Below are positions 31,175-53,276 of a DNA stretch of 53,276 nt, piece after piece; position 1 is the stretch's first letter; every line of letters starts with the position of its first letter. The notes beneath the pieces were generated by a model. That model saw only the letters and a list, made by a program, of their open reading frames with translations. It had not been told where the DNA came from and made no database searches. Position numbers and translations under genes: made by a program. Location of the stretch: the IMG/VR virus record IMGVR_UViG_3300041809_003414, positions 1 to 53,276 of that record; one strand, 5' to 3'. Origin of the DNA: a virus. Its lineage: Duplodnaviria > Caudoviricetes.

Positions 31175-32413
31175 TTAAGCCACTTCGTCAAACGTCCGGC
31201 CGGACCCCTCGTGCCGCGCCTGTTTCCCGGTCCATTGCTGCCAGCGACGGATCACAACGTCGCAGTACTTCGGGTCCAACTCAATCAGTCGCGCCTGGCG
31301 GCCGGCCTTTTCGCAGGCGATAGCGGTTGTGCCACTGCCGGCAAAGGGATCGAGGATCGTGTCGCGCGTTTTGCTGCTGTTGCGGATCGCACGCTCGACC
31401 AGCTCGACCGGTTTCATAGTCGGATGTTCCTGGTTGCTCGCAGGACGTTTGATGAACCAGATGTCGCCCTGGTCGCGGGCCCCACACCAGAAGTGGTCCA
31501 CACCGTCGCGCCAGCCGTACAGAATCGGTTCGTACTGACGCTGATAATCAGATCGACCCAGCGTGAAGTGATGCTTGGCCCAGATCACAAACGTCGACCA
31601 ATGCCCGCCGGCATCCGTGAATGCCTGGTGGAGCGTGTGCAGTTCCGACGAGGACATGCAGATGTAGATGGCGCCTTTGCAGACCGTCAACATGTTTGTC
31701 GACGCGTCGCGCAGGAAGTCGTAGAACTGCTCGCCCAGTTTGTCGTTCTGGATCTTGAGTTTCTTTGCCGTCTTCCCTTCGTAGGCGACGCCATACGGTG
31801 GATCGCTGAAGACCATATCGGCCAACCCGCCAGCCATGACCTTCTCCACGTCTGCGAGCACCGTAGCATCGCCGCAAAGCAGGCGGTGCTCGCCCATCAC
31901 CCAAACGTCGCCGGTAACCGTGACGACAGTTTCCTGGGCCTCCGGTGCCGCTTCGTCCTCGCTCAGGCCCGAAGTGCTCTCTTCTGGATCTACCAGGATC
32001 TCGTCAAGTTCCTCGGGGCTGAATCCCACCAGTTCCAGGTCGTACTCGACGGCCTTCAGCGACTCCAGTTCGACGCGCAACATCTCGTCGTCCCACCCGG
32101 CATTGGTCGCAATCTTATTGTCGGCCAGCACCAGCGCGCGCCGATCGTCCTCGCTGAGATGGTCGAGGACGATGACTGGAACCTCGGCAAGACCGAGCTT
32201 ACGCGCAGCCGCCAGGCGGGCGTGGCCTGCGATGATGATGTTGTCGCTGCCGACGAGGATCGGATTGGTCCAGCCAAACTGGCGCATGCTCGCGGCGACC
32301 TGGGCTACCTGCTCGTCGGTATGGGTCCGTGCGTTCCGGATGTACGGCAGCAGTCGGTCCACCGGCCAGATTTGGATGTGGAGATTGCGAAGGCGCTCAA
32401 TGATGTCCAACAT
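31175..32413 (-). CDS. ParB-like domain / DNA methyltransferase (DPPY, likely N6-adenine)
   Basis: NARTH...IIAGHARL ParB-N; FSDPPY, HPTMKPVELV, DPFAGSGTT. Confidence 0.92.
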   Translation of the reverse strand: MLDIIERLRNLHIQIWPVDRLLPYIRNARTHTDEQVAQVAASMRQFGWTNPILVGSDNIIIAGHARLAAARKLGLAEVPVIVLDHLSEDDRRALVLADNKIATNAGWDDEMLRVELESLKAVEYDLELVGFSPEELDEILVDPEESTSGLSEDEAAPEAQETVVTVTGDVWVMGEHRLLCGDATVLADVEKVMAGGLADMVFSDPPYGVAYEGKTAKKLKIQNDKLGEQFYDFLRDASTNMLTVCKGAIYICMSSSELHTLHQAFTDAGGHWSTFVIWAKHHFTLGRSDYQRQYEPILYGWRDGVDHFWCGARDQGDIWFIKRPASNQEHPTMKPVELVERAIRNSSKTRDTILDPFAGSGTTAIACEKAGRQARLIELDPKYCDVVIRRWQQWTGKQARHEGSGRTFDEVA

Positions 32414-32414
32414 C

Positions 32415-33947
32415 TCAGAGGTTTCCCTTTTGTCGTGTCCGGAGATCCGGTTCGTTACCAGCGTCAGCGGGCAGATCGCGCGCCTCCGCAACGTCACTGA
32501 ACGTCTGACCGGACTCCGCCCGCACCGGAGTCTCGCCAGCCAGATTGACTATGCGCCGCAGGATGACATCGCAGTAGGCCGGCGACAACTCGCAGCCATA
32601 CGCGATGCGATCCAGCAGGTGCGCCGCCGCCATCGTCGTCCCGGAACCCATGAACGGGTCATAGACGATGTCCCCCGGATCGCTGAACGCAAACAGGAAG
32701 AACTCCACCAGCGCCCGCGGAAACGGTGCGCTGTGGGATCCCTGGCTCGACTCGGACTTCACCTCGATGACGTTCGACGGTCGCGCCACGCCGGTGTAGC
32801 GGCCTTCCGTGTTCGGCGCCGCGTTCAGATCGCGGTGCGATCTCTGCCAGGCGCTCTGGTTCCTGCCGGGATCGGCGGCGGCGCCGCGCGGCCCCGTGCC
32901 CAGTAGCCCGCTGCCCGATGTGGACTTTGGGTTGTTGGGCGAATATTCGAAACAGTCCTCCGACTCATGCCCGACGCGCTTGGGCCGGAATTTAATTTCC
33001 TGCTGGCGGCAAAAATGGAAGACAGGTTCCCAGGCGTTTTTGAAACGGTTGTTCCAACCGCCAGGCACGCCATTGTCCGTTTTGCGCCAGCAGAACTCGT
33101 CCACAAAACGCCAACCCCACAGGCGGCGGTGGGCGATCACTAAATCTTTCACATAAAGGCTGCGCTCGCCGTTGTCGGCATGCTCCTTGATGTTCAGGAA
33201 GTAGGAGGCATCGTCTGCAAGGATCGCGGCGATGTTGGCGGCCACATCGCGATACCAGTCTGCATACTGGTCCGGCGGGATCGGGCGGAAGCCGCTCGAA
33301 GAGTCGTACTCCCGCTGCGAGGCGTACGGCGGTGATGTGATCGCGACGTTCGCGTGCGCTTCCTCGAATAGTTTGCGAATAACACTCGCGTCACGGCAAT
33401 CGCCGCATATCAGACGGTGCTTGCCGATCACCCAGACATCGCCTGGCCGGGTGACAGCCTGGACGGGAGTCTCCGGAACCTCCTCCTCTGCCTCGGGAGC
33501 AGCTTCCGGTTCCTCGGGCACAGCCAGCAGCGCATCGAGCTCGTCGGTAGAGAAACCCACGAGCGCCAGGTCGAGGCCATCCGTTTGGAGGTCCTTCAAC
33601 TCGTCGGCAAGGAGAGTATCGTCCCATCCGGCGTTGAGCGCGATCTTGTTGTCGGCGATGATGTAGGCGCGCCGCTGGGTTTCGCTGAGGTGATCCAGCA
33701 CAACCACCGGCACCTCGCCAAGGCCCAGCTTCCGGGCAGCCAGGAGGCGACCATGGCCGGCTATTACGCCAGCATCGGATGCCACCAGAATTGGGGAGTT
33801 GAAGCCGAATTCCTTGATGGACGCTGCGATTTGAGCCACCTGCTCTTCGGAATGGGTCCGAGCGTTCCTCTGGTAGGGGAGCAGTCGCTCCACAGGCCAA
33901 ATCTCGATCCGTTGAGCCATCGCAGGAGTGAATGTCTTCGTGCTCAT
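32415..33947 (-). CDS. ParB-like domain / DNA methyltransferase (SPPY, likely N4-cytosine)
   Basis: NARTHS...VIAGHGRL ParB-N; ITSPPY, HSAPFP, DPFMGSGTT. Confidence 0.92.
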   Translation of the reverse strand: MSTKTFTPAMAQRIEIWPVERLLPYQRNARTHSEEQVAQIAASIKEFGFNSPILVASDAGVIAGHGRLLAARKLGLGEVPVVVLDHLSETQRRAYIIADNKIALNAGWDDTLLADELKDLQTDGLDLALVGFSTDELDALLAVPEEPEAAPEAEEEVPETPVQAVTRPGDVWVIGKHRLICGDCRDASVIRKLFEEAHANVAITSPPYASQREYDSSSGFRPIPPDQYADWYRDVAANIAAILADDASYFLNIKEHADNGERSLYVKDLVIAHRRLWGWRFVDEFCWRKTDNGVPGGWNNRFKNAWEPVFHFCRQQEIKFRPKRVGHESEDCFEYSPNNPKSTSGSGLLGTGPRGAAADPGRNQSAWQRSHRDLNAAPNTEGRYTGVARPSNVIEVKSESSQGSHSAPFPRALVEFFLFAFSDPGDIVYDPFMGSGTTMAAAHLLDRIAYGCELSPAYCDVILRRIVNLAGETPVRAESGQTFSDVAEARDLPADAGNEPDLRTRQKGNL

Positions 33948-45982: not shown

Positions 45983-47002
45983 TTAGAAAACTGGCTCTGG
46001 GGTTTCGTTGGGCAGCACGCGCAATTCTTCGTTGGGCGGCACGCGCTGGAAGAAGTTATCGATCAAGTTGGGATTGCCGTTCGAACGGCACAACGCGAAA
46101 TAAGAGCAGGGCCGTTGGTAGTTGAAGCAGAAAGCGGTGTTCTGGTAGAACACGCCGCGGCGCCGCGCATCCAGGAACGCCTGCGTCAGCTCCCACAGCT
46201 CACTGCGCAAAATATCGAAGCGGTCCCGCGAGAGATAGAGCATTTCCCGGTGAAGCATCGTGGGTTCGGAATACTTTTCCGCCAGCCGCTGCTGAAACTC
46301 TTCATCCGTCTCCGGCATGCGGCGCTTCGCCGATGACTTGCCGGTTTTCGATTTTGCCAGCAGTTCGGCCCGGCGGGCCTGAAATTCCTCCTCGGTCTCG
46401 CCTTTGCTCTGCTGCAGCTTCGCCTTCACCAGGACGTTGTAGAGAATCCCGGTGATGGGGATCCCCATAGTCTGCTCGACATAGTGGGCATAGATGGTGA
46501 TCTGGAAATCCGTCCAAAGGCGTTCCAGGTAATCGGAATCCATTTGTCCGGCGGTTTTGTGTTCGAGGACGAAGTAATTCTCGCCAATGCAAGCGATGCC
46601 ATCCACCTTGCCGGCAAGCTGGAAGCTACGTGAAGCCGCGCCGGTGGCTGGATTGACGATCGGACCTTCGAATGTCTTCTCCAGGGCGACAATCTCGAAT
46701 TCCTCGGTTGCATATCGCGCGGCATAAGCTTTCATCATTGCCGCGGCGAGGTGCCAGTCCCGAAGTTGGTTCTCATCCTGGACCCGATTGGGACAAAGAC
46801 GGTCGATCAAGGCCAGTACTTCGCCGAGATCGCGGCGCTGGTGCCAGGTCTGCAGACACTCGTGGATGAGAGTGCCGAAATGCAGGTTCCGGTCGCGCTG
46901 GATGGGAACGAGTTGCTGGAGGTATCGCCACTCAACCGCCTTGCGGCAGTTGCGGAACAGCGACCACATCGAATAAGTGGAGACCATCGGCCCAGGACTC
47001 AT
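45983..47002 (-). CDS. PD-(D/E)XK exonuclease (RecB/Cas4-like, four Cys)
   Basis: FGTLIHE, GKVDG, EHKT, Q..IY; one N-terminal Cys and C-terminal CxxxxxxCxxxxxC. Confidence 0.88.
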   Translation of the reverse strand: MSPGPMVSTYSMWSLFRNCRKAVEWRYLQQLVPIQRDRNLHFGTLIHECLQTWHQRRDLGEVLALIDRLCPNRVQDENQLRDWHLAAAMMKAYAARYATEEFEIVALEKTFEGPIVNPATGAASRSFQLAGKVDGIACIGENYFVLEHKTAGQMDSDYLERLWTDFQITIYAHYVEQTMGIPITGILYNVLVKAKLQQSKGETEEEFQARRAELLAKSKTGKSSAKRRMPETDEEFQQRLAEKYSEPTMLHREMLYLSRDRFDILRSELWELTQAFLDARRRGVFYQNTAFCFNYQRPCSYFALCRSNGNPNLIDNFFQRVPPNEELRVLPNETPEPVF

Positions 47003-47574
47003 CTCGCGCCTTGCCATGTCGGCGCCAGGCCAGACGTACGAAACGCGGCGCGCAACTCCTCCCGGAACTGATAGGTCCTCCGGCTGGTGAGGCCCAGTTT
47101 CGTGCCCATTTTGGCGGCGATTTCGCCAAAATCCGTCGTACGGATCTCCTCCGCTAGAAGCTGTACGCGGGGGGCCACCGACGAGAGCACCTTTTCGACG
47201 TCGATCCTGGCCTGAACCGCTTCGGCAGTCGAACTCCGGGAGGCATCGTCTAGGCCGGCGGAAGCTTCAACCGGGCATTCGGTTTCGTCGTCATCCGTCA
47301 GAGAGGCGATTCTGCCCATTCCCGACCGGATGGCCTTCAGTGCCAGCGATGCCGCCCGGTTACGGATCAAACGGTTGATGAAAGTCTTGTAGGTGCCCCG
47401 TTCGCGCTTGAATCCGCTAATGCGCTTCCAGTACTCCAGGAAGAGCTGCTGCTCAAGGTCTTGGCGATCGTCTTCCCGGAACAACTGACATGCCACCAAT
47501 TCGTGGACCCGGCACCGAATGCTGTCGAGCGCGTATCGATCCATTTCCGATAAATCACTGCTTGCTGTCCTCAT
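46999..47574 (-). CDS. Phage-encoded sigma-70 family (ECF-like) factor
   Basis: Region 2 DRQDLEQQLFL...F...RG..KTFI.RLIRN and region 4 HTH (EIAAKMG...SRRT). Confidence 0.82.
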   Translation of the reverse strand: MRTASSDLSEMDRYALDSIRCRVHELVACQLFREDDRQDLEQQLFLEYWKRISGFKRERGTYKTFINRLIRNRAASLALKAIRSGMGRIASLTDDDETECPVEASAGLDDASRSSTAEAVQARIDVEKVLSSVAPRVQLLAEEIRTTDFGEIAAKMGTKLGLTSRRTYQFREELRAAFRTSGLAPTWQGAR

Positions 47575-47693
47575 GTTTCCTCCCTGCCGGGGAGGTCCTT
47601 GTGGGGGCCAACAAAAAAGCGGAGGTCGGCGGGCGCGTGCTTTTCACGCGACTCACAAGGACCTCCGCTTCGCGGTCAGTCGTTTATCTGGTG
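47575..47693 (-). promoter_or_regulatory. Structured RNA leader: terminator / antiterminator / SD-sequester switch
   Basis: AAGCGGAGGTC pairs with GACCTCCGCTT running into a T6 tract; alternative 13-bp pairing with CACAAGGACCTCC; CCTCCC/GGGAGG hairpin over the SD. Confidence 0.7.
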
Positions 47694-47713
47694 TGTCTCT
47701 GGCTGCAGCTACA

Positions 47714-48040
47714 TCATGTGCGCGACAGAGCCTCCAGCCGCATCCTGAAGGGGATGCCATGTTTCACTTCGAGGCGCCCGATGGTGCCGTCCCCGATGGT
47801 GGTCAGGGAGTTCAGCAACTCGGTGACCTGTGTTTTGGCGGCCAAGTCTTTCGACGCAGCCTCCGGCCGGGGATCGACCTCCCCTCCGAACTTGATTTCC
47901 CGCACCACGCGCGGCGCCGGATCGAATACCGGCTCGCCGCCACGGATCTCCAGCTCTTCAATCGAGCCGAAGTGAAGCTCCCGCATCAGGCGAAGCAGGC
48001 GCCGGCGCCCGTCCGAAAGCTCCGCGATCTGTGCCGGCAT
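47714..48040 (-). CDS. Small tandem-domain protein, candidate RNA-binding antiterminator
   Basis: Two related halves LMRELHFGSIEELEIRGGEP / LTTIGDGTIGRLEVKHGIP; GAGGAG SD; function inferred only from context. Confidence 0.65.
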   Translation of the reverse strand: MPAQIAELSDGRRRLLRLMRELHFGSIEELEIRGGEPVFDPAPRVVREIKFGGEVDPRPEAASKDLAAKTQVTELLNSLTTIGDGTIGRLEVKHGIPFRMRLEALSRT

Positions 48041-48042
48041 GA

Positions 48043-48258
48043 TTAACTCTCCTCCCTTCCGACAGCCTGCTCGGCCCGCATGAGTTTGCGTTCCGATTCA
48101 AGCGCCAACTGGACAGCGCGCGACTTCACCCGTCCGTTCTTTACCATCGAAACCAGAGCTTTGCTCTTACCGAGCCGCTTCGCCACCCTAGTAACCAACC
48201 CGAAGTAACGTGTGACCGGCCTTTTTATGATTTCTGTAATGCAATCTGAATTTTGCAT
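48043..48258 (-). CDS. Cro-like HTH protein
   Basis: VTRVAKRLGKSKALVSMVKNG HTH; first gene after a consensus promoter; start 48258 or 48291. Confidence 0.7.
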   Translation of the reverse strand: MQNSDCITEIIKRPVTRYFGLVTRVAKRLGKSKALVSMVKNGRVKSRAVQLALESERKLMRAEQAVGREES

Positions 48259-48316
48259 GACCCGATTGAAGACCCTGAATTTACGTCCCATTACTGCTGT
48301 TACTTCACAGTTACAA

Positions 48317-48344
48317 ATTATAAGCATTGCAGTCATGATGTCAA
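48317..48344 (-). promoter_or_regulatory. Sigma-70 consensus early promoter
   Basis: TTGACA-16 nt-TATAAT on the minus strand. Confidence 0.8.
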
Positions 48345-48355
48345 CCTGTTAAGCT
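48327..48355 (+). promoter_or_regulatory. Divergent repressor promoter
   Basis: TTGCAG-17 nt-TAAGCT with extended TGn, 10 nt before ATG 48366. Confidence 0.55.
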
Positions 48356-48365
48356 GAACACTTGC

Positions 48366-48758
48366 ATGCAAGTGATTGAACCAAAGATCAAAAATGTTGT
48401 CGTTCGAATTCCCGAAGATCTGCATCTGCCGCTTCGCAAAAAGATCGCCGAGATTGATACCTCTTTCCAGGAGGTAATTCTGGAGTCCCTGGTTGGCTGG
48501 CTGCACGCCAAAGATTCGACAGCGACCAAGAGGTGGCTTGCAAGAGTGGAGGAGACCGCCCGCAACGCCTGCCAGTTGCCGCCCGAGTTGACGCCCGAGA
48601 ACCGCGAGGAAAAGGAGTTTGTTGCTGGTCTGCTGGCGTTCCTTCGCGATCCCGAGCGACCCTTCCGGAAAGAGATGCAAAGGTTGCTGAAAAGCATGTT
48701 CGAGATCGATTCCAAGCGAGCCTTCCCGAATACGAAAAAAAGACGAAAAATCATTTGA
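48366..48758 (+). CDS. Putative repressor with N-terminal ribbon-helix-helix domain
   Basis: KNVVVRIPEDLHLPLRKKIAE..TSFQEVI RHH pattern; divergent from the Cro-like gene. Confidence 0.7.
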   Translation: MQVIEPKIKNVVVRIPEDLHLPLRKKIAEIDTSFQEVILESLVGWLHAKDSTATKRWLARVEETARNACQLPPELTPENREEKEFVAGLLAFLRDPERPFRKEMQRLLKSMFEIDSKRAFPNTKKRRKII

Positions 48759-48809
48759 TCTATAATTTGTTTTGGGATATTCTAGTCCGGTATTCCTAAA
48801 ACGACTTCG

Positions 48810-49247
48810 ATGCTGTCTGTCCCGGTTCTCCCCGCTCGTGACCCCCGTCCGATCACAGACGAGCGCCTCGCTCAGGCTTACGCTGCCGAGGAACTCCTCG
48901 AAACACTCCTGGACGACCTGCACCAGGACATGCAAAATGGAGCTGCGATGCTGGCATGCGACTACCAGATCCCGGAGCGCCTTCGTCCACACAGTTCGCT
49001 GCCGCGCGCCGGAGGACGTGACCGGCGCCGCAAGATCTTGCAGTTTCCGCGTATTCGCGATCCGGAGCCGATCACAGACGCGCGCCTGGAGCAGGCGTTC
49101 GCAGCGGAGAGGCTGCTGGATGCCATCCTGGAGGATCTGTTCCAGGACCTCGTCTTGGGCGCAGCAGTGGTCTCGCGCAGTTACCAGCTCCGGTGGCTGC
49201 ACAAACGACCCAGTGCGATCCGTCTCGCGCGATGTGCGACTGGTTAG
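48810..49247 (+). CDS. Hypothetical protein with internal duplication
   Basis: Two ~45 aa repeats beginning RDPRPITDERL / RDPEPITDARL. Confidence 0.6.
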   Translation: MLSVPVLPARDPRPITDERLAQAYAAEELLETLLDDLHQDMQNGAAMLACDYQIPERLRPHSSLPRAGGRDRRRKILQFPRIRDPEPITDARLEQAFAAERLLDAILEDLFQDLVLGAAVVSRSYQLRWLHKRPSAIRLARCATG

Positions 49248-49654
49248 CATCGGCATTCCTGGCGTAATTTTCGCCACTCAAGCCGCTGCCGGTCCCATAG
49301 CGGCTGGCAGGCGATCTTTCGTAATTTGGTTTCCGTGAGCGGGAATCTGCCGGGTGAAGCCTTCGGCAGGAATAGAATCTCCTCCTGAATATCGGGCGCG
49401 AGGTTGGCAAGGTTCATGATCTGACTCATGCGCGCCCGGGTAATATATCCGGCCCTCGCAAGTTCGGCGTAGTCCCGCACCTCGCCGCTTTCAACTAGAT
49501 CGAGGCACTTGATGGCAAGTGCCATTAGGCGGGCCAAGTGGGGTATGCAACCGGAGGACGGCAGGAGTTGGGAAGCGATCGGCGCGCCCGAGCGCAACGG
49601 AGTGTCGAGTTCGAATTCCACGTCGATCGTGCCGGCAAATTCGCTGCGATTCAT
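49244..49654 (-). CDS. Recombinase-associated HTH protein
   Basis: ARLMALA...ESGEVRDYAELAR...TRARMSQIMNL.NLAPDIQE motif; abuts the recombinase stop. Confidence 0.75.
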   Translation of the reverse strand: MNRSEFAGTIDVEFELDTPLRSGAPIASQLLPSSGCIPHLARLMALAIKCLDLVESGEVRDYAELARAGYITRARMSQIMNLANLAPDIQEEILFLPKASPGRFPLTETKLRKIACQPLWDRQRLEWRKLRQECRC

Positions 49655-51241
49655 CTACCCCTCCATCTCCGCGCCTCGGCAAATACGCCGAATGCCCGCG
49701 CTCCGGAAGCTGACGGTAACTTTGTTCGTTTTGCCGTCGTAGGCGACACACTCGATCAGGCCGTGGACGATTCGCGCCTGTTCGCGCGATGTTAGCGACT
49801 CCCAGACCGGACCGAATTCGACCAGGGCTGCCCGGAAGTCATCCTCGTTGACGGCCTTGGATTCGAGGCCAGTAAGTTCCTGCTGAATCTCGCTCAACCG
49901 CCGCTCCGTCTGGCCGATCCGTTCCTGAAGATCTGCCATGCGGTCCGTTACCATCTGGTCGCGGCGGCCCACCAAGGGGACCAGTTTGCGCAGTTCAGCG
50001 CCCATTCCCGCTAGTTCCTTTTGCGTAAGCTGGCGCTCAGAGGTGAGGTCCGTGACCTGTCCGCGCCTCTGCTCCTCGGCCTTCGCAATCGCGCGGGCCG
50101 CGATTTGGGGATCGGAGCCGATCCGCCGGATCTGCTGCACAACCGCCGACTCGATTGCAGGCGCGGAGACCGACTTGGTCTCGCAGTTTTCCCATCCCCT
50201 TTGTTGGGCCTGCTCGCAAACGTAATATCGGTAGCGCCGCGAGCCCTTCGCCGTGTAGGTGTGAACCATTCCCGCATCACACGATGCGCACCGCAGGAGT
50301 CCTTTCAGGAGAGCACCGTAATTATTGCGAACCTCGACTCCGCCGCTGCGCCCGTTGCTCTGCAGGATCTTTTGCACCTTCTCCCAGGTCTCCGCGGCAA
50401 CGATGGCCTCGTGCTCACCGCCATACATCTGGCCCTTGTATTCCACCCTCCCGGTGTAAATTGGGTTCGTGAGCACCCGGTACAGCAGCCCCTTCGTGAA
50501 TGGCTTCCCGCCCTCGGTTTCGCCCCTTTTCGTAATCCACTGCTTGGTGCGCCAACCGCGGCGGTCGATTTCACGGACGACGGGCAGCATAGCGCGGTAA
50601 TCAAGGTAGAGGTTGTATATCGCCCTGACTTGGTGGGCTTCGTCCCCATTGATGGCAAGGCGGCCACCGCGAGGATCGATGTCATAGCCCAGCACGGGGT
50701 GTCCGCCAGTCCACTTGCCCTTTCGCCTGGCCGCCGACATCTTATCGCGGGTACGCTCGGCGATGATCTCGCGTTCGAACTGCGCGAAGGAGAGGAGGAT
50801 ATTGAGGGTGAGGCGCCCGAGCGAGTTAGTGGTGTTGAACTGCTGCGTGACGGATACGAAGCTGACATTATTCTTTTCGAATGTCTCAACGATGCGAGCG
50901 AAGTCGATCAATGACCGGCTCAGGCGATCCACCTTGTAGACCACCACGCAGTCGACCCCACCGGCGCGAATCTCCGTTAGGAGCCGCTGCAGCGCCGGCC
51001 GCTCCAAATTGCCGCCGCTGAATCCACCGTCGTCGTAGTGCTCGGGCAGGGTGACGAGGCCTTCCCCGCGCTGGCTAAGGATGTAGGCCTCCCCGGCTTC
51101 GCGCTGCGCATCCAGGGAATTGAAGTCCTGATCCAGACCCTCGTCGGTGGACTTTCGGGTGTAGATGGCGCAGCGGACTGTCTTGGCGGCGGCCGGCGCC
51201 GGCGCGTTGGTCGCGACCACTGCATTTCTACCGTTGCGCAA
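49655..51241 (-). CDS. Large serine recombinase (integrase)
   Basis: CAIYTRKS catalytic Ser, DGGFSGG.LERPAL, VYKVDRLSRS, recombinase domain, CxxC...RYYVC zinc ribbon, coiled coil. Confidence 0.96.
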   Translation of the reverse strand: MRNGRNAVVATNAPAPAAAKTVRCAIYTRKSTDEGLDQDFNSLDAQREAGEAYILSQRGEGLVTLPEHYDDGGFSGGNLERPALQRLLTEIRAGGVDCVVVYKVDRLSRSLIDFARIVETFEKNNVSFVSVTQQFNTTNSLGRLTLNILLSFAQFEREIIAERTRDKMSAARRKGKWTGGHPVLGYDIDPRGGRLAINGDEAHQVRAIYNLYLDYRAMLPVVREIDRRGWRTKQWITKRGETEGGKPFTKGLLYRVLTNPIYTGRVEYKGQMYGGEHEAIVAAETWEKVQKILQSNGRSGGVEVRNNYGALLKGLLRCASCDAGMVHTYTAKGSRRYRYYVCEQAQQRGWENCETKSVSAPAIESAVVQQIRRIGSDPQIAARAIAKAEEQRRGQVTDLTSERQLTQKELAGMGAELRKLVPLVGRRDQMVTDRMADLQERIGQTERRLSEIQQELTGLESKAVNEDDFRAALVEFGPVWESLTSREQARIVHGLIECVAYDGKTNKVTVSFRSAGIRRICRGAEMEG

Positions 51242-51740
51242 CGGAGGCCTCCTTGGATTGGGTTAAGCCCCAGAAGAGGAAGCCATTCCACTTCGTGCCA
51301 GTCACCGCCTGGGCGACAGCGCTGAGCGATTTGTAAAGCTTACCGTCGTAGTCGAAACCGTTCTCGCGGACCTCGACACTGATCCGACGGCCTTTGTAAT
51401 CCCGGCTGAGCATCGTGCCCGGCATCGGAAGCCGGGCGTCGATGCCCACCGACGCGGTCGCGGAATGACCGTGTTGACAGGCCGGTCTATCCTCCAGTGC
51501 ATCCTTTGGTGGGTGGATGCGAAGATCCGCATCGTTGGCCAGCTCCATCGCCCTGCGGTGGGCGCGCTCGCTCAATCCACCCTCGGCGAGGGTTTGTAGG
51601 CGCCAGGCGATGCGCTTGAAGAGGGCTTCCTTATGTTTCGAGCGAACCTCCTCGCCAAAGAGTTCCAGGTGTTTCCGCTGGAGCTGGGCGACGGTCATTT
51701 GCCGGAGGCCATCGATTTCGTTTTTCAGTGCGCGATTCAA
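51228..51740 (-). CDS. DUF2924 domain protein
   Basis: IAWRLQ..AEGGLS, PGT.L.R.YKG, Y.SLSAVA.AVTGTKWNGFLFWGL. Confidence 0.9.
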   Translation of the reverse strand: MNRALKNEIDGLRQMTVAQLQRKHLELFGEEVRSKHKEALFKRIAWRLQTLAEGGLSERAHRRAMELANDADLRIHPPKDALEDRPACQHGHSATASVGIDARLPMPGTMLSRDYKGRRISVEVRENGFDYDGKLYKSLSAVAQAVTGTKWNGFLFWGLTQSKEASVAQR

Positions 51741-51766
51741 GATCTATCTCCCTTTCTCGGGTGGCG

Positions 51767-51964
51767 CTAACTTACAGCACCATGAGGGCTCAATTCGGAC
51801 GCACTATCAAGTCCATCTCCGGTGTCCGGATGCGGCTCCGGCAGGGGAGTGACGCCGCCGGCATCTTGCAGGGTTCGGGCATTCCGCAGCCGCAAATATC
51901 CGGTAGCAAGAAGAGAAGCGATCTCGTCAATGACCGAGTCGGGCGGATCCTGTCGATACTCCAT
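51767..51964 (-). CDS. Small hypothetical protein preceding DUF2924
   Basis: EIASLLATGYLRL motif typical of this cassette; GGAG upstream. Confidence 0.5.
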   Translation of the reverse strand: MEYRQDPPDSVIDEIASLLATGYLRLRNARTLQDAGGVTPLPEPHPDTGDGLDSASELSPHGAVS

Positions 51965-51992
51965 TCCAATCTCCAATCGTGGAAGAACGGAA

Positions 51993-52162
51993 ACGGATTA
52001 TCGTTGGGGGAGCGGAGAGGAGGGAGGATTGGCGGCGCGGCTGCAGTGCGGGTTTACCTCTAACCGTCGCCTGGATTCCAGGCTCTCCGGCACCCACAAC
52101 GAAGTCCGCTTCGCGGTCGTCCAGTTGTCTGGTGGTCAGTGGAGCAGACTGTTAACTGCTCC
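51993..52162 (-). promoter_or_regulatory. Structured leader of integrase cassette with second copy of the RNA motif
   Basis: CACCAGA-N9-GACCGCGAAGCGGA shared with 47664..47693; 5' hairpin GGAGCAG/CTGCTCC; long-range pairing to 51993..52010. Confidence 0.65.
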
Positions 52163-52166
52163 TAAT

Positions 52167-52218
52167 GTTATATACCCCGCGAGGGGCCGAATTTTGAAAC
52201 GGTTTTCGAAAAATATTT
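52167..52218 (-). promoter_or_regulatory. Putative phage sigma factor-dependent promoter, copy 2
   Basis: 52-bp element closely matching 38156..38207. Confidence 0.65.
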
Positions 52219-52310
52219 TGAAAAGAGTTTCCTGTCCCCGCCGGGCCGCTTCCGTGTATTGAGATCGGAGGGAGATCAGAATTCTGCCGCGCTGTGCGGT
52301 GTCGAGTGAT

Positions 52311-53276
52311 ATGCTGAGCGGGTTGACGTTCGAATTCTACAGGTTCCGATTTCATTTCCGCTCCGCAGGAGCGCTGCATTTCCCTCCTTATAAATCCGGT
52401 AATATCGTGCGCGGCGCGTTCGGAGATCTATTTCGCAAAATCGTTTGCATGCCAAGCTGTCATGACGCCAAGACATGCGAGGTTCGCGCAACCTGCCCGT
52501 ACGCTCGCGTTTTTGAGCCGCAGGCGGCGCGGGGTGAAGGCCCAAGTGGGCTGGTGGACTGGCCGCGGCCGTTCGTGTTCCGCGCCGCTCACTTGGACGG
52601 GCGCACGATTCTGAATGGCGAAGCGTTCCACTTCGATGCCCATATCTTCGACGTGCGAGACCCGGCCCTGCCGTATTTCGTGCTTGCGTTTGCTCAATTA
52701 GCGCGGGACGGGCTAGGGCCGGGCAGAGGGCGCGCGGACCTCACCGCCGTGGATCAACTGGACCTGAATGGGGCAACTGCAGCGCGCGTTTTCAACGGCG
52801 AGCGCTTCCAAACGGCCAGTCTGTCAGGCCCCAGCGCCGTCGATCTCAGCGAGGCGACAGAGCACATAGGCAACATTAGAGTGCAATTCCTAACCCCGAC
52901 AGAACTGAAGAGCGGGCGCCAGGTGGCAGATCGTCCGGAATTCGGAATTCTGTTCGGTCGTTTGCGAGACCGAATCAGCGCGCTGCGGGCGCTATACGGC
53001 ACCGGACCTTTGGAGATCGACTTTCGCGCCCTGGGTGAGCGTGCGGCAAGGGTCCAGATGTTGCGGTGCGAGTTGAAGCGGATGGAAGTGGACCGGCGCT
53101 CTTCCAGGACGCAACAGCGCCATCCGCTGGGCGGCTTTGTGGGCGAGGCGGAGTACGAGGGAGATCTGGGTGAGTTCCTGCCCTATTTGTGGCTGGGACA
53201 GTGGGTGGGGGTCGGAAGGCAAACGGTCTGGGGTAAGGGGCATTTGGAGATCATCACGCCCATGGATGCGTCTTGA
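52311..53276 (+). CDS. cas6: CRISPR-associated endoribonuclease Cas6 (solitary in this window)
   Basis: VRGAFG, Cys cluster C...C..C...CPY..VFE, PRPFV, F.TP..L, GFVG...Y.G and C-terminal G-rich loop GVGRQTVWGKG. Confidence 0.9.
   Translation: MLSGLTFEFYRFRFHFRSAGALHFPPYKSGNIVRGAFGDLFRKIVCMPSCHDAKTCEVRATCPYARVFEPQAARGEGPSGLVDWPRPFVFRAAHLDGRTILNGEAFHFDAHIFDVRDPALPYFVLAFAQLARDGLGPGRGRADLTAVDQLDLNGATAARVFNGERFQTASLSGPSAVDLSEATEHIGNIRVQFLTPTELKSGRQVADRPEFGILFGRLRDRISALRALYGTGPLEIDFRALGERAARVQMLRCELKRMEVDRRSSRTQQRHPLGGFVGEAEYEGDLGEFLPYLWLGQWVGVGRQTVWGKGHLEIITPMDAS

Follow-up and report, generated by a model that had tools for sequence, protein, structure and literature searches.

Is a short sequence that occurs twice in a provirus, once in the leader of a recombinase operon and once directly before a sigma factor gene, a functional RNA, and if so, what might it control? 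The provirus record under study (53,276 bases; the whole stretch of DNA analysed, referred to below as the window) leads to the answer that both sites are copies of one family of structured leader RNAs of ~45 nt, carried by acidobacterial temperate phages and by small integrative cassettes. The structured RNA is real, widespread and as yet unannotated, and at the sigma gene its overlap with a terminator provides a clear mechanism. To our knowledge, almost nothing is known of the decision between lysogeny and growth in phages of the Acidobacteria, which are among the most abundant soil phyla; in this family, a single short RNA element is found both at the recombinase operon and at the probable gate before the phage sigma factor.

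Nearly all genes of the window lie on the minus strand. Starting at the high-coordinate end, the features of this strand come in the following order: a promoter-like box, motif copy 2, an ORF of 65 aa, a DUF2924 gene and a large serine recombinase gene, then ORFs of 136, 314, 97 and 108 aa, motif copy 1 and the gene of an ECF-like sigma factor. After the sigma gene come a PD-(D/E)XK nuclease, AAA_24, DUF669, a RecD-like helicase and a primase/VapE protein, and lastly a gpA-type terminase, two ParB-methylases, a lambda-type portal and a capsid protein. The ParB-methylases are two adjoining genes (31175-33947, minus strand), each of which joins a ParB N-terminal domain to an N6/N4 DNA methylase domain.

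The first gene 3′ of copy 2 is the small ORF (51767..51964, minus strand; 65 aa, with ..EIASLLATGYLRLR.. and ..SPH..), followed by the DUF2924 gene (51228..51740, minus strand; Pfam E 1.9e-41) and the large serine recombinase gene (49655..51241, minus strand), which has Resolvase, Recombinase and Zn_ribbon_recom domains. The 108-aa gene (47714..48040, minus strand) belongs to a family always found 5′ of those copies that are called class B below. Downstream of copy 1, the sigma gene (46999..47574, minus strand; 191 aa) matches Pfam Sigma70_r2 (E 1.8e-4), a PHROG sigma factor (1.4e-7) and TIGR02937 (7.8e-8, below its cut-off). At the far end, a Cas6-like ORF (52299-53276, plus strand; Pfam CRISPR_Cas6, E 2.6e-16) diverges from the first promoter; it occurs in no related locus and is therefore probably host flank, and if it is host DNA the prophage end would fall at ~52200-52300.

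Two copies of a covarying hairpin

The earlier note had claimed two copies of one motif with identical spacing, and this is borne out. The window has exactly two instances of CACCAGA-N9-GACCGCGAAGCGGA, at 47664-47693 and 52105-52134, on the minus strand in either case and with a 9-nt spacer, and both copies run on as ..nnTCnTTGTGnGT; dinucleotide shuffles of the window gave a match in 0/100. The motif as a whole is 44 nt long. With the covariance model, run with filters off, copy 2 (class A, i.e. the recombinase leader; 52091..52134, minus strand) scores 71.0 bits and copy 1 (class B, i.e. the sigma leader; 47650..47693, minus strand) 56.3 bits, against 11 bits for the next best site in the window. 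Copy 2 has the helices P1a (CACC/GGTG), an AG/G internal loop, P1b (ACAAC/GTTGT), a junction and P2 (CCGC-GAA-GCGG), and on its own it takes up the predicted shape, at -15.7 kcal/mol. In copy 1, the weaker of the two, the core is kept and the outer helix P1a is degenerate (GAGTC vs GGGTG in the family).

Across the family the fold is a single hairpin, in which P1a (CACC/GGTG) is followed by an internal loop of NG opposite G, by P1b (AC plus three pairs), by a junction and by P2 (CCGC/GCGG), whose loop usually has 3 nt, with loops of 3-5 nt occurring. The alignment of homologues reveals compensatory changes in all three helices. Specifically, the 101 distinct sequences have 96.5% of their cells paired, and both sides change in 9 of the 13 pairs (67 cells), in alignments that are fitted to the model; none of 500 pairing shuffles reaches the observed values, a control that is inflated by kinship among the sequences, and strand-slid controls pair 25-60% of cells. 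P2 reads CCAC/GUGG in 16 sequences and UCCC/GGGA, CAGC/GCUG, UCGC/GCGA, GCUC/GAGC or CCUAA/UUAGG in divergent members, where P1a in turn appears as CGCC/GGCG, UGCC/GGCA or CGUU/AACG. Since the helices are highly conserved in sequence and nearly invariant in the bulk of the family, most of the covariation comes from a few lineages. RNAalifold, given the same alignment, recovers P1b and three of the four P2 pairs, and does not recover P1a.

The most conserved positions are unpaired: of the 101 sequences, 94 keep the 5′ internal-loop G, 96 a G ahead of P2, 97 an A behind P2 and 100 the bulged G. In the P2 loop the sequence varies freely, with G at the first position in 41, A in 28 and C in 27 of the 101. 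A GAA loop closed by C-G, as both window copies have it, recalls an unusually stable mini-hairpin; as a defining feature of the motif it is ruled out by the variation of the loop across the family.

The earlier note had taken the motif for a recurrent cis-acting RNA site, a reading at odds with a DNA operator that works in either orientation and with a site that related elements lack. The site is strand-specific and conserved in related elements, and thus neither orientation-independent nor unconserved. It lies in the leaders of the recombinase cassette and of the sigma gene, as had been stated, and in a sample of 134 distinct loci (enriched for class B by the way it was collected) profile HMMs class the downstream gene as sigma-like in 70, as the small ORF in 47 and as Xis-like in 3, with 14 unclassified; in all 120 classified loci this gene is on the strand of the motif. 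Among 108 distinct cores, G-U pairs number 71 and A-C pairs 21, an excess that points to RNA rather than to a DNA operator. In addition, complements downstream of the motif covary with its 3′ half, which makes sense only in a transcript.

It is accordingly highly improbable that the motif acts as double-stranded DNA, be it as an operator, as an attachment-type site of the serine recombinase or as a promoter read by the phage sigma factor. With its ~45 bp, its imperfect inverted symmetry and its place next to a serine recombinase operon, it would suit such a role, and half-sites bound by a dimer can also covary. However, the motif is intact inside the integrated prophage, with a second copy before the sigma gene and far from the prophage end, and the constant placement on the gene strand, the ratio of G-U to A-C pairs and the covarying complements 13-16 nt and ~60-130 nt downstream all speak against it, as does the -35 position relative to a CGTY box, which falls in a variable segment. 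On inspection, an ECF-type promoter is rejected on that variable -35 segment. An attachment site would be expected once, intact, in each free element, to be split at the ends after integration and to work whichever strand is transcribed; it is rejected on the two intact copies in the provirus, the presence of up to 8 copies per genome, the locked strand and the same pair counts.

Leaders of the sigma gene and of the recombinase operon

At copy 1 the motif shares its sequence with a predicted intrinsic terminator (47610..47671, minus strand; minimum-free-energy folds). The terminator 5′ arm GAAGCGGAGGTC (47671-47660) is made up of the loop, the P2 3′ half and the junction of copy 1, the 3′ arm GACCTCCGC lies at 47627-47619, and a T6 tract follows at 47618-47613; the window copy thus shows what is typical of an attenuator, i.e. 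mutually exclusive pairing, a terminator hairpin and a T tract. Because the 3′ half of the copy 1 hairpin is the 5′ arm of the terminator, folding of the motif and termination exclude each other. In the predicted energies the terminator (-38.5 kcal/mol) is ahead of the fold in which the motif is enforced (-25.9 kcal/mol) by ~12.6, and these models show the terminator as the default fold at copy 1. Since the motif at the sigma gene overlaps the stop signal, it probably gates read-through into the genes of virus growth. A distal complement, CACAAGGACCTCC (47591..47603, minus strand), of GGAGGTCCTTGTG (47666-47654) lies just 5′ of the sigma ribosome-binding site; its analogue in the family is a second complement, of GTGGGTG and its flank, which is followed by an anti-SD/SD hairpin and then by the sigma-like gene.

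The arrangement recurs in class B. A complement of the motif 3′ half, from the P2 3′ side to the P1b 3′ strand, comes 13-16 nt after the motif, covaries with it and, in 35 of 58 distinct loci, pairs more strongly than any of 50 shuffles (mean -20.9 vs -14.1 kcal/mol). T-rich tails with at least 4 T in 10 nt occur in 35/58 loci and with at least 5 in 22/58, and in the other 23 of the 58 T tracts are weak or absent behind the terminator-like hairpin. Metatranscriptome contigs from three runs cover the 97-aa and 108-aa genes best (47641-48209), and their low-coordinate ends at 47679, 47675 and 47641 lie inside the motif/terminator, although contigs of this kind tell nothing about the strand or about where the RNA itself ends; over the sigma gene there is a single small contig, and 51336-52300 (copy 2) has none, an absence that proves nothing. 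These contigs hint, weakly, at transcription of the short operon that stops at the gate.

A perfect sigma-70 consensus promoter (TTGACA-16-TATAAT, 12/12) stands at 48344-48317 (minus strand), at the start of the 97-aa ORF and upstream of the stretch that the RNA contigs cover best, and could drive the 97-aa/108-aa transcript. As a conserved feature ahead of the 108-aa operon, a consensus promoter is rejected, with a site of at least 10/12 at the equivalent place in 0 of 64 related viral loci.

Copy 2 stands behind a promoter-like site (TTTCAA, 19 nt, TATATA; 52169..52199, minus strand) that was read by eye and is absent from a consensus scan, and a 5′ hairpin, GGAGCAG..CTGCTCC (52141..52162, minus strand), lies between its -10-like box and the motif. 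In class A generally, the motif follows a -10-like box by 17-36 nt, and a 5′ hairpin whose sequence differs between loci often lies in front of it; L004, L027 and L013 have hairpins of other sequence at this position. In the short type of leader the next feature, 10-20 nt on, is the ribosome-binding site of either the small ORF or an Xis-like gene, and in the long type a leader of ~100-130 nt contains a distal complement of GTTGTGGGTG and the following bases. The transcription unit of some genomes consists of the small ORF, DUF2924 and the recombinase only, and three class A loci have the Xis-like gene in place of the small ORF.

Upstream of the -10-like box, the promoter spacers of L027, L029-L033, L047 and L052 share a conserved segment, ..ACAnTTTCGAA.., that includes the palindrome TTCGAA; it may be an operator. 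The last ~45 nt of the small ORF (around ..GAGCCCTCATGTGACTGCTGGTTAAC..; 51767-51800 in the window) are conserved as DNA in L027, L016, L030, L031, L033 and similar class A loci, and finish in GTTAAC, which in the same loci also follows the -10-like box (TATAGTTAAC). This segment could be a second regulatory or recombination site.

A switch of Shine-Dalgarno (SD) access in the short class A leaders was considered and dropped, with no effect predicted by folding: in 32 such leaders SD accessibility is 0.46 with the motif enforced and 0.49 with its 5′ strand blocked, the SD being more exposed by enforcing the motif in 3 of them and by blocking the strand in 5. At copy 2 itself, the predicted energy is -71.5 kcal/mol against -68.1 kcal/mol with the motif enforced, a difference of 3.4. 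Any control at copy 2 would, on these models, be steric or act via the distal complement.

The long-range pairing at copy 2 is where the earlier note holds in part. It had placed a pairing partner, CAACGATAATCCGT (52006-51993), downstream of the motif, and this can pair with GCGGACTTCGTTG in two blocks of 4 and 6 bp that flank an internal loop. In the minimum-free-energy fold, GUUGUGGGUGCCGGAGAG is the partner of CUCUCCGCUCCCCCAAC, and CAACGATAATCCGT forms no more than the tail of an extended, imperfectly matching stretch (51993..52019, minus strand) that is complementary to copy 2 in its 3′ half, with 52019-51993 opposite 52109-52083. The named register is not kept in the closest relatives, L003 and L010, where the conserved complement spans GTTGTGGGTG and the following bases, not the GCGGA..TCCGT register, and the copy 2 duplex taken alone (-27.1 kcal/mol) does no better than shuffled sequence, which averages -24.0 and at best reaches -28.0. 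Family-wide, the distal complement of the long leaders is real: downstream pairing beats the upstream control in 36 of 45 loci (Wilcoxon p = 7e-6), is better than all 30 shuffles in 10 of the 45, and reaches 19 perfect base pairs in L003. Short leaders have no distal complement.

Candidate mechanism and rival readings

The reading that we favour, with a probability of roughly 0.55, is that the motif family is an antiterminator or leader switch, stabilised by a putative factor, through which the sigma and recombinase units share one signal. The factor, most likely a protein encoded by the element or by the host, would bind the conserved loops and helices and so stabilise the motif, and the bound motif would let RNA polymerase pass from the 97-aa and 108-aa genes into those for sigma, replication and virion. 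Copy 2 would put this binding site at the head of the recombinase operon (small ORF, DUF2924, serine recombinase), and the two transcription units would then answer the same signal, with copy 2 being turned either up or down. The earlier note had one trans factor co-activate the excision cassette and the sigma/replication operon; this interpretation is partly supported, and the observation behind it, as a whole, partly confirmed.

Known systems offer analogies for both the layout and the logic. In lambda, nutL and nutR, the sites of N, are two related RNA sites per phage, one of which lies in the leader after an early promoter and the other behind an early gene, just before the first terminator; the N protein reads the loop of the nut hairpin, and the hairpin is preceded by a conserved segment. 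The window has the same layout, with copy 2 after a -10-like box and copy 1 directly before and over a terminator, and here too a conserved segment precedes the hairpin. In contrast to nut, the loop of this motif varies freely, the conserved 5′ segment is base-paired and covarying, the motif overlaps the terminator arm itself, and no N-like protein was recognised in the Pfam, PHROG and NCBIfam scans. The putL and putR sites of HK022 are cis-acting structured RNAs with two stem-loops, present twice per phage, that need no phage protein. They resemble the motif in being two structured RNAs per phage at a similar position relative to promoter and terminator, and they differ from it in that the motif is one hairpin of ~45 nt that is also found in three-gene recombinase cassettes.

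RAT sites (bound by BglG, SacY or LicT) and ANTAR targets are protein-dependent antiterminator hairpins that overlap a terminator. They share with the motif a small hairpin whose 3′ side is the terminator 5′ arm, and the likeness extends to the energetics: of the two folds the terminator is the stabler one, and read-through would call for a bound factor. Sequence and shape differ, however, and the host elements here are phages; among the 20 window proteins scanned with Pfam, there is no CAT/PRD or ANTAR protein. In kind, the motif thus appears by analogy to be a terminator/antiterminator leader, closest to nut and put in layout and to protein-dependent antiterminator hairpins in logic.

As for the factor, the 108-aa protein is tightly linked to class B and yet an unlikely universal partner. 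It has no match in Pfam, PHROG or NCBIfam, a profile search of the PDB gave a chance match only, its AlphaFold2 model (pLDDT 47) is too poor for structure search, and a protein atlas holds it in unnamed clusters only. Out of 151 genomes, 36 have a strong 108-aa match and 28 of these also have the motif, and 41 of 69 motif-bearing genomes are without a strong match, absences that are soft since the assemblies are incomplete; moreover, there are class A cassettes that do not carry the protein. On the poor model, the chance PDB match and this incomplete co-occurrence, the protein was set aside as the partner. The Cas6-like ORF was likewise discarded as an RNA-binding partner, tblastn of all fetched loci finding it in the window alone. 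N is an arginine-rich protein encoded next to the first nut site; proteins encoded in 47714-51964 have no N-like family match (Pfam, PHROG, NCBIfam), and the small ORF and the 108-aa protein contain short arginine-bearing stretches. Because three-gene class A cassettes exist and an Xis-like gene can replace the small ORF, no single element-encoded protein goes with every copy, and a host factor, a small ligand or separate partners for the two classes are possible.

A small ligand would be at the heart of a riboswitch, in which the hairpin binds a small molecule or ion that reports the state of the host, and the terminator and the ribosome-binding-site neighbourhood serve as expression platforms. 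Such a switch is a covarying, conserved aptamer joined to varied platforms, and this is what is found: the core and its unpaired nucleotides are conserved and the loop is variable, the helices covary, the platforms range from a terminator (class B) to SD adjacency or a long leader with distal complement (class A), and no partner protein accompanies every copy. It is nevertheless unlikely, since the only strongly conserved unpaired positions, about four, would make a small pocket, the recombinase, sigma and Xis-like genes downstream point to no metabolite, and the conservation of helix sequence beyond the needs of pairing fits protein contacts or multiple pairing partners better. Unlikely, too, is the related idea that the hairpin is the sensor of a new phage switch, in which a host-derived signal (a small molecule or a stress-reporting host protein) couples excision and lytic entry; if this were true, small recombinase cassettes with a class A copy alone would be listening in on the same signal.

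Quite unlikely, in turn, is an RNA that acts in cis with no factor at all, either as a put-type modifier of RNA polymerase or as a kinetic switch set by the speed of transcription or by upstream translation. The placement suits it, with one copy after the first promoter and one before the first terminator of a near-unidirectional genome, and each of the two viral records estimated to be 95% and 100% complete has just one class A copy and one class B copy; it would also agree with the fact that no partner protein was found. Yet three-gene cassettes, which have no known downstream terminator, carry the motif as well, its overlap with the terminator arm suggests local competition over processive modification, and in the window the 108-aa gene ends at a stop codon ~20 nt short of the motif, so that a terminating ribosome would not cover it. 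An element of RNA processing or stability, i.e. a long duplex with the distal complement that is cut by RNase, or a protective 5′ structure, in either case with no sensing, is improbable. Long leaders with a distal complement (perfect over its 19 bp in L003), class A leaders that often start with a 5′ hairpin and RNA contigs that end inside the motif would all agree with it, but the short leaders do not have the distal complement, and a plain RNase III duplex would need neither conserved internal-loop nucleotides nor a fixed overlap with a terminator. The terminator overlap makes the mechanism testable, and bench work has a defined starting point in a 45-nt RNA, its terminator and a small set of candidate partners.

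Place among known RNAs and spread of the motif

For RNA annotation the motif is a new family. Rfam 15 has 0 matches at the gathering score in the whole window, and with E up to 10 the region 47500-52300 gives two unrelated weak matches, neither of them on a motif copy. Acido-1 and Acido-Lenti-1 are structured RNA motifs of Acidobacteria described from comparative analysis (PMC2864571); they are of the same phylum and were found by the same kind of analysis, and this motif has no Rfam match to them. No description of the motif was found in the literature searched, including the consulted parts of PMC2864571, PMC11109978 and PMC8632094, whose supplementary motif lists could hold it. GenBank phages gave no DNA match to the leader of copy 2 and no protein match to the 108-aa protein.

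Exact-pattern scans of viral contigs and genome contigs turned up the motif in a single viral contig and seven contigs from genomes; the latter are labelled Solibacteraceae, Bryobacteraceae, Terriglobia, Acidobacteria and, in one case, a Hydrogenedentota MAG. In that MAG (G004), a class A and a class B copy (L005 and L019) lie 7 kb apart on one contig, which means either a wider host range or a binning error. A first covariance model (R1), built from 12 sequences, matches 38 of the 151 genomes of one order (that of G003), often several times per genome and in clusters. A second model (R2) matches 69 of 151 genomes of one acidobacterial family (that of G001), and 6 of 151 in a phylum-wide sample, G003 itself included; two phylum-wide matches (L057, L059) were judged false because they lie inside coding sequence.

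The association can also be approached from the protein. Ten homologues of the 108-aa protein were aligned, and 80 viral loci were fetched solely for encoding it; R2 finds the motif in 65 of these, in every case on the strand of the protein and in 64 directly 3′ of the gene. Among the other 15, seven have weak matches at the same place (E 0.0015-0.041, filters off). One locus (L158) ends short and is left out of the 79 intact ones, of which seven (L099, L102, L121, L144, L147, L154 and L157) are without the leader: the sigma-like gene directly follows the 108-aa gene, with neither motif nor terminator in between.

Within the order of G003, genomes carry up to 8 copies. One genome (G140:C1, at 2.43-2.62 Mb and at 8.96 Mb) has eight matches, six of them within ~180 kb, which suggests several related elements side by side.
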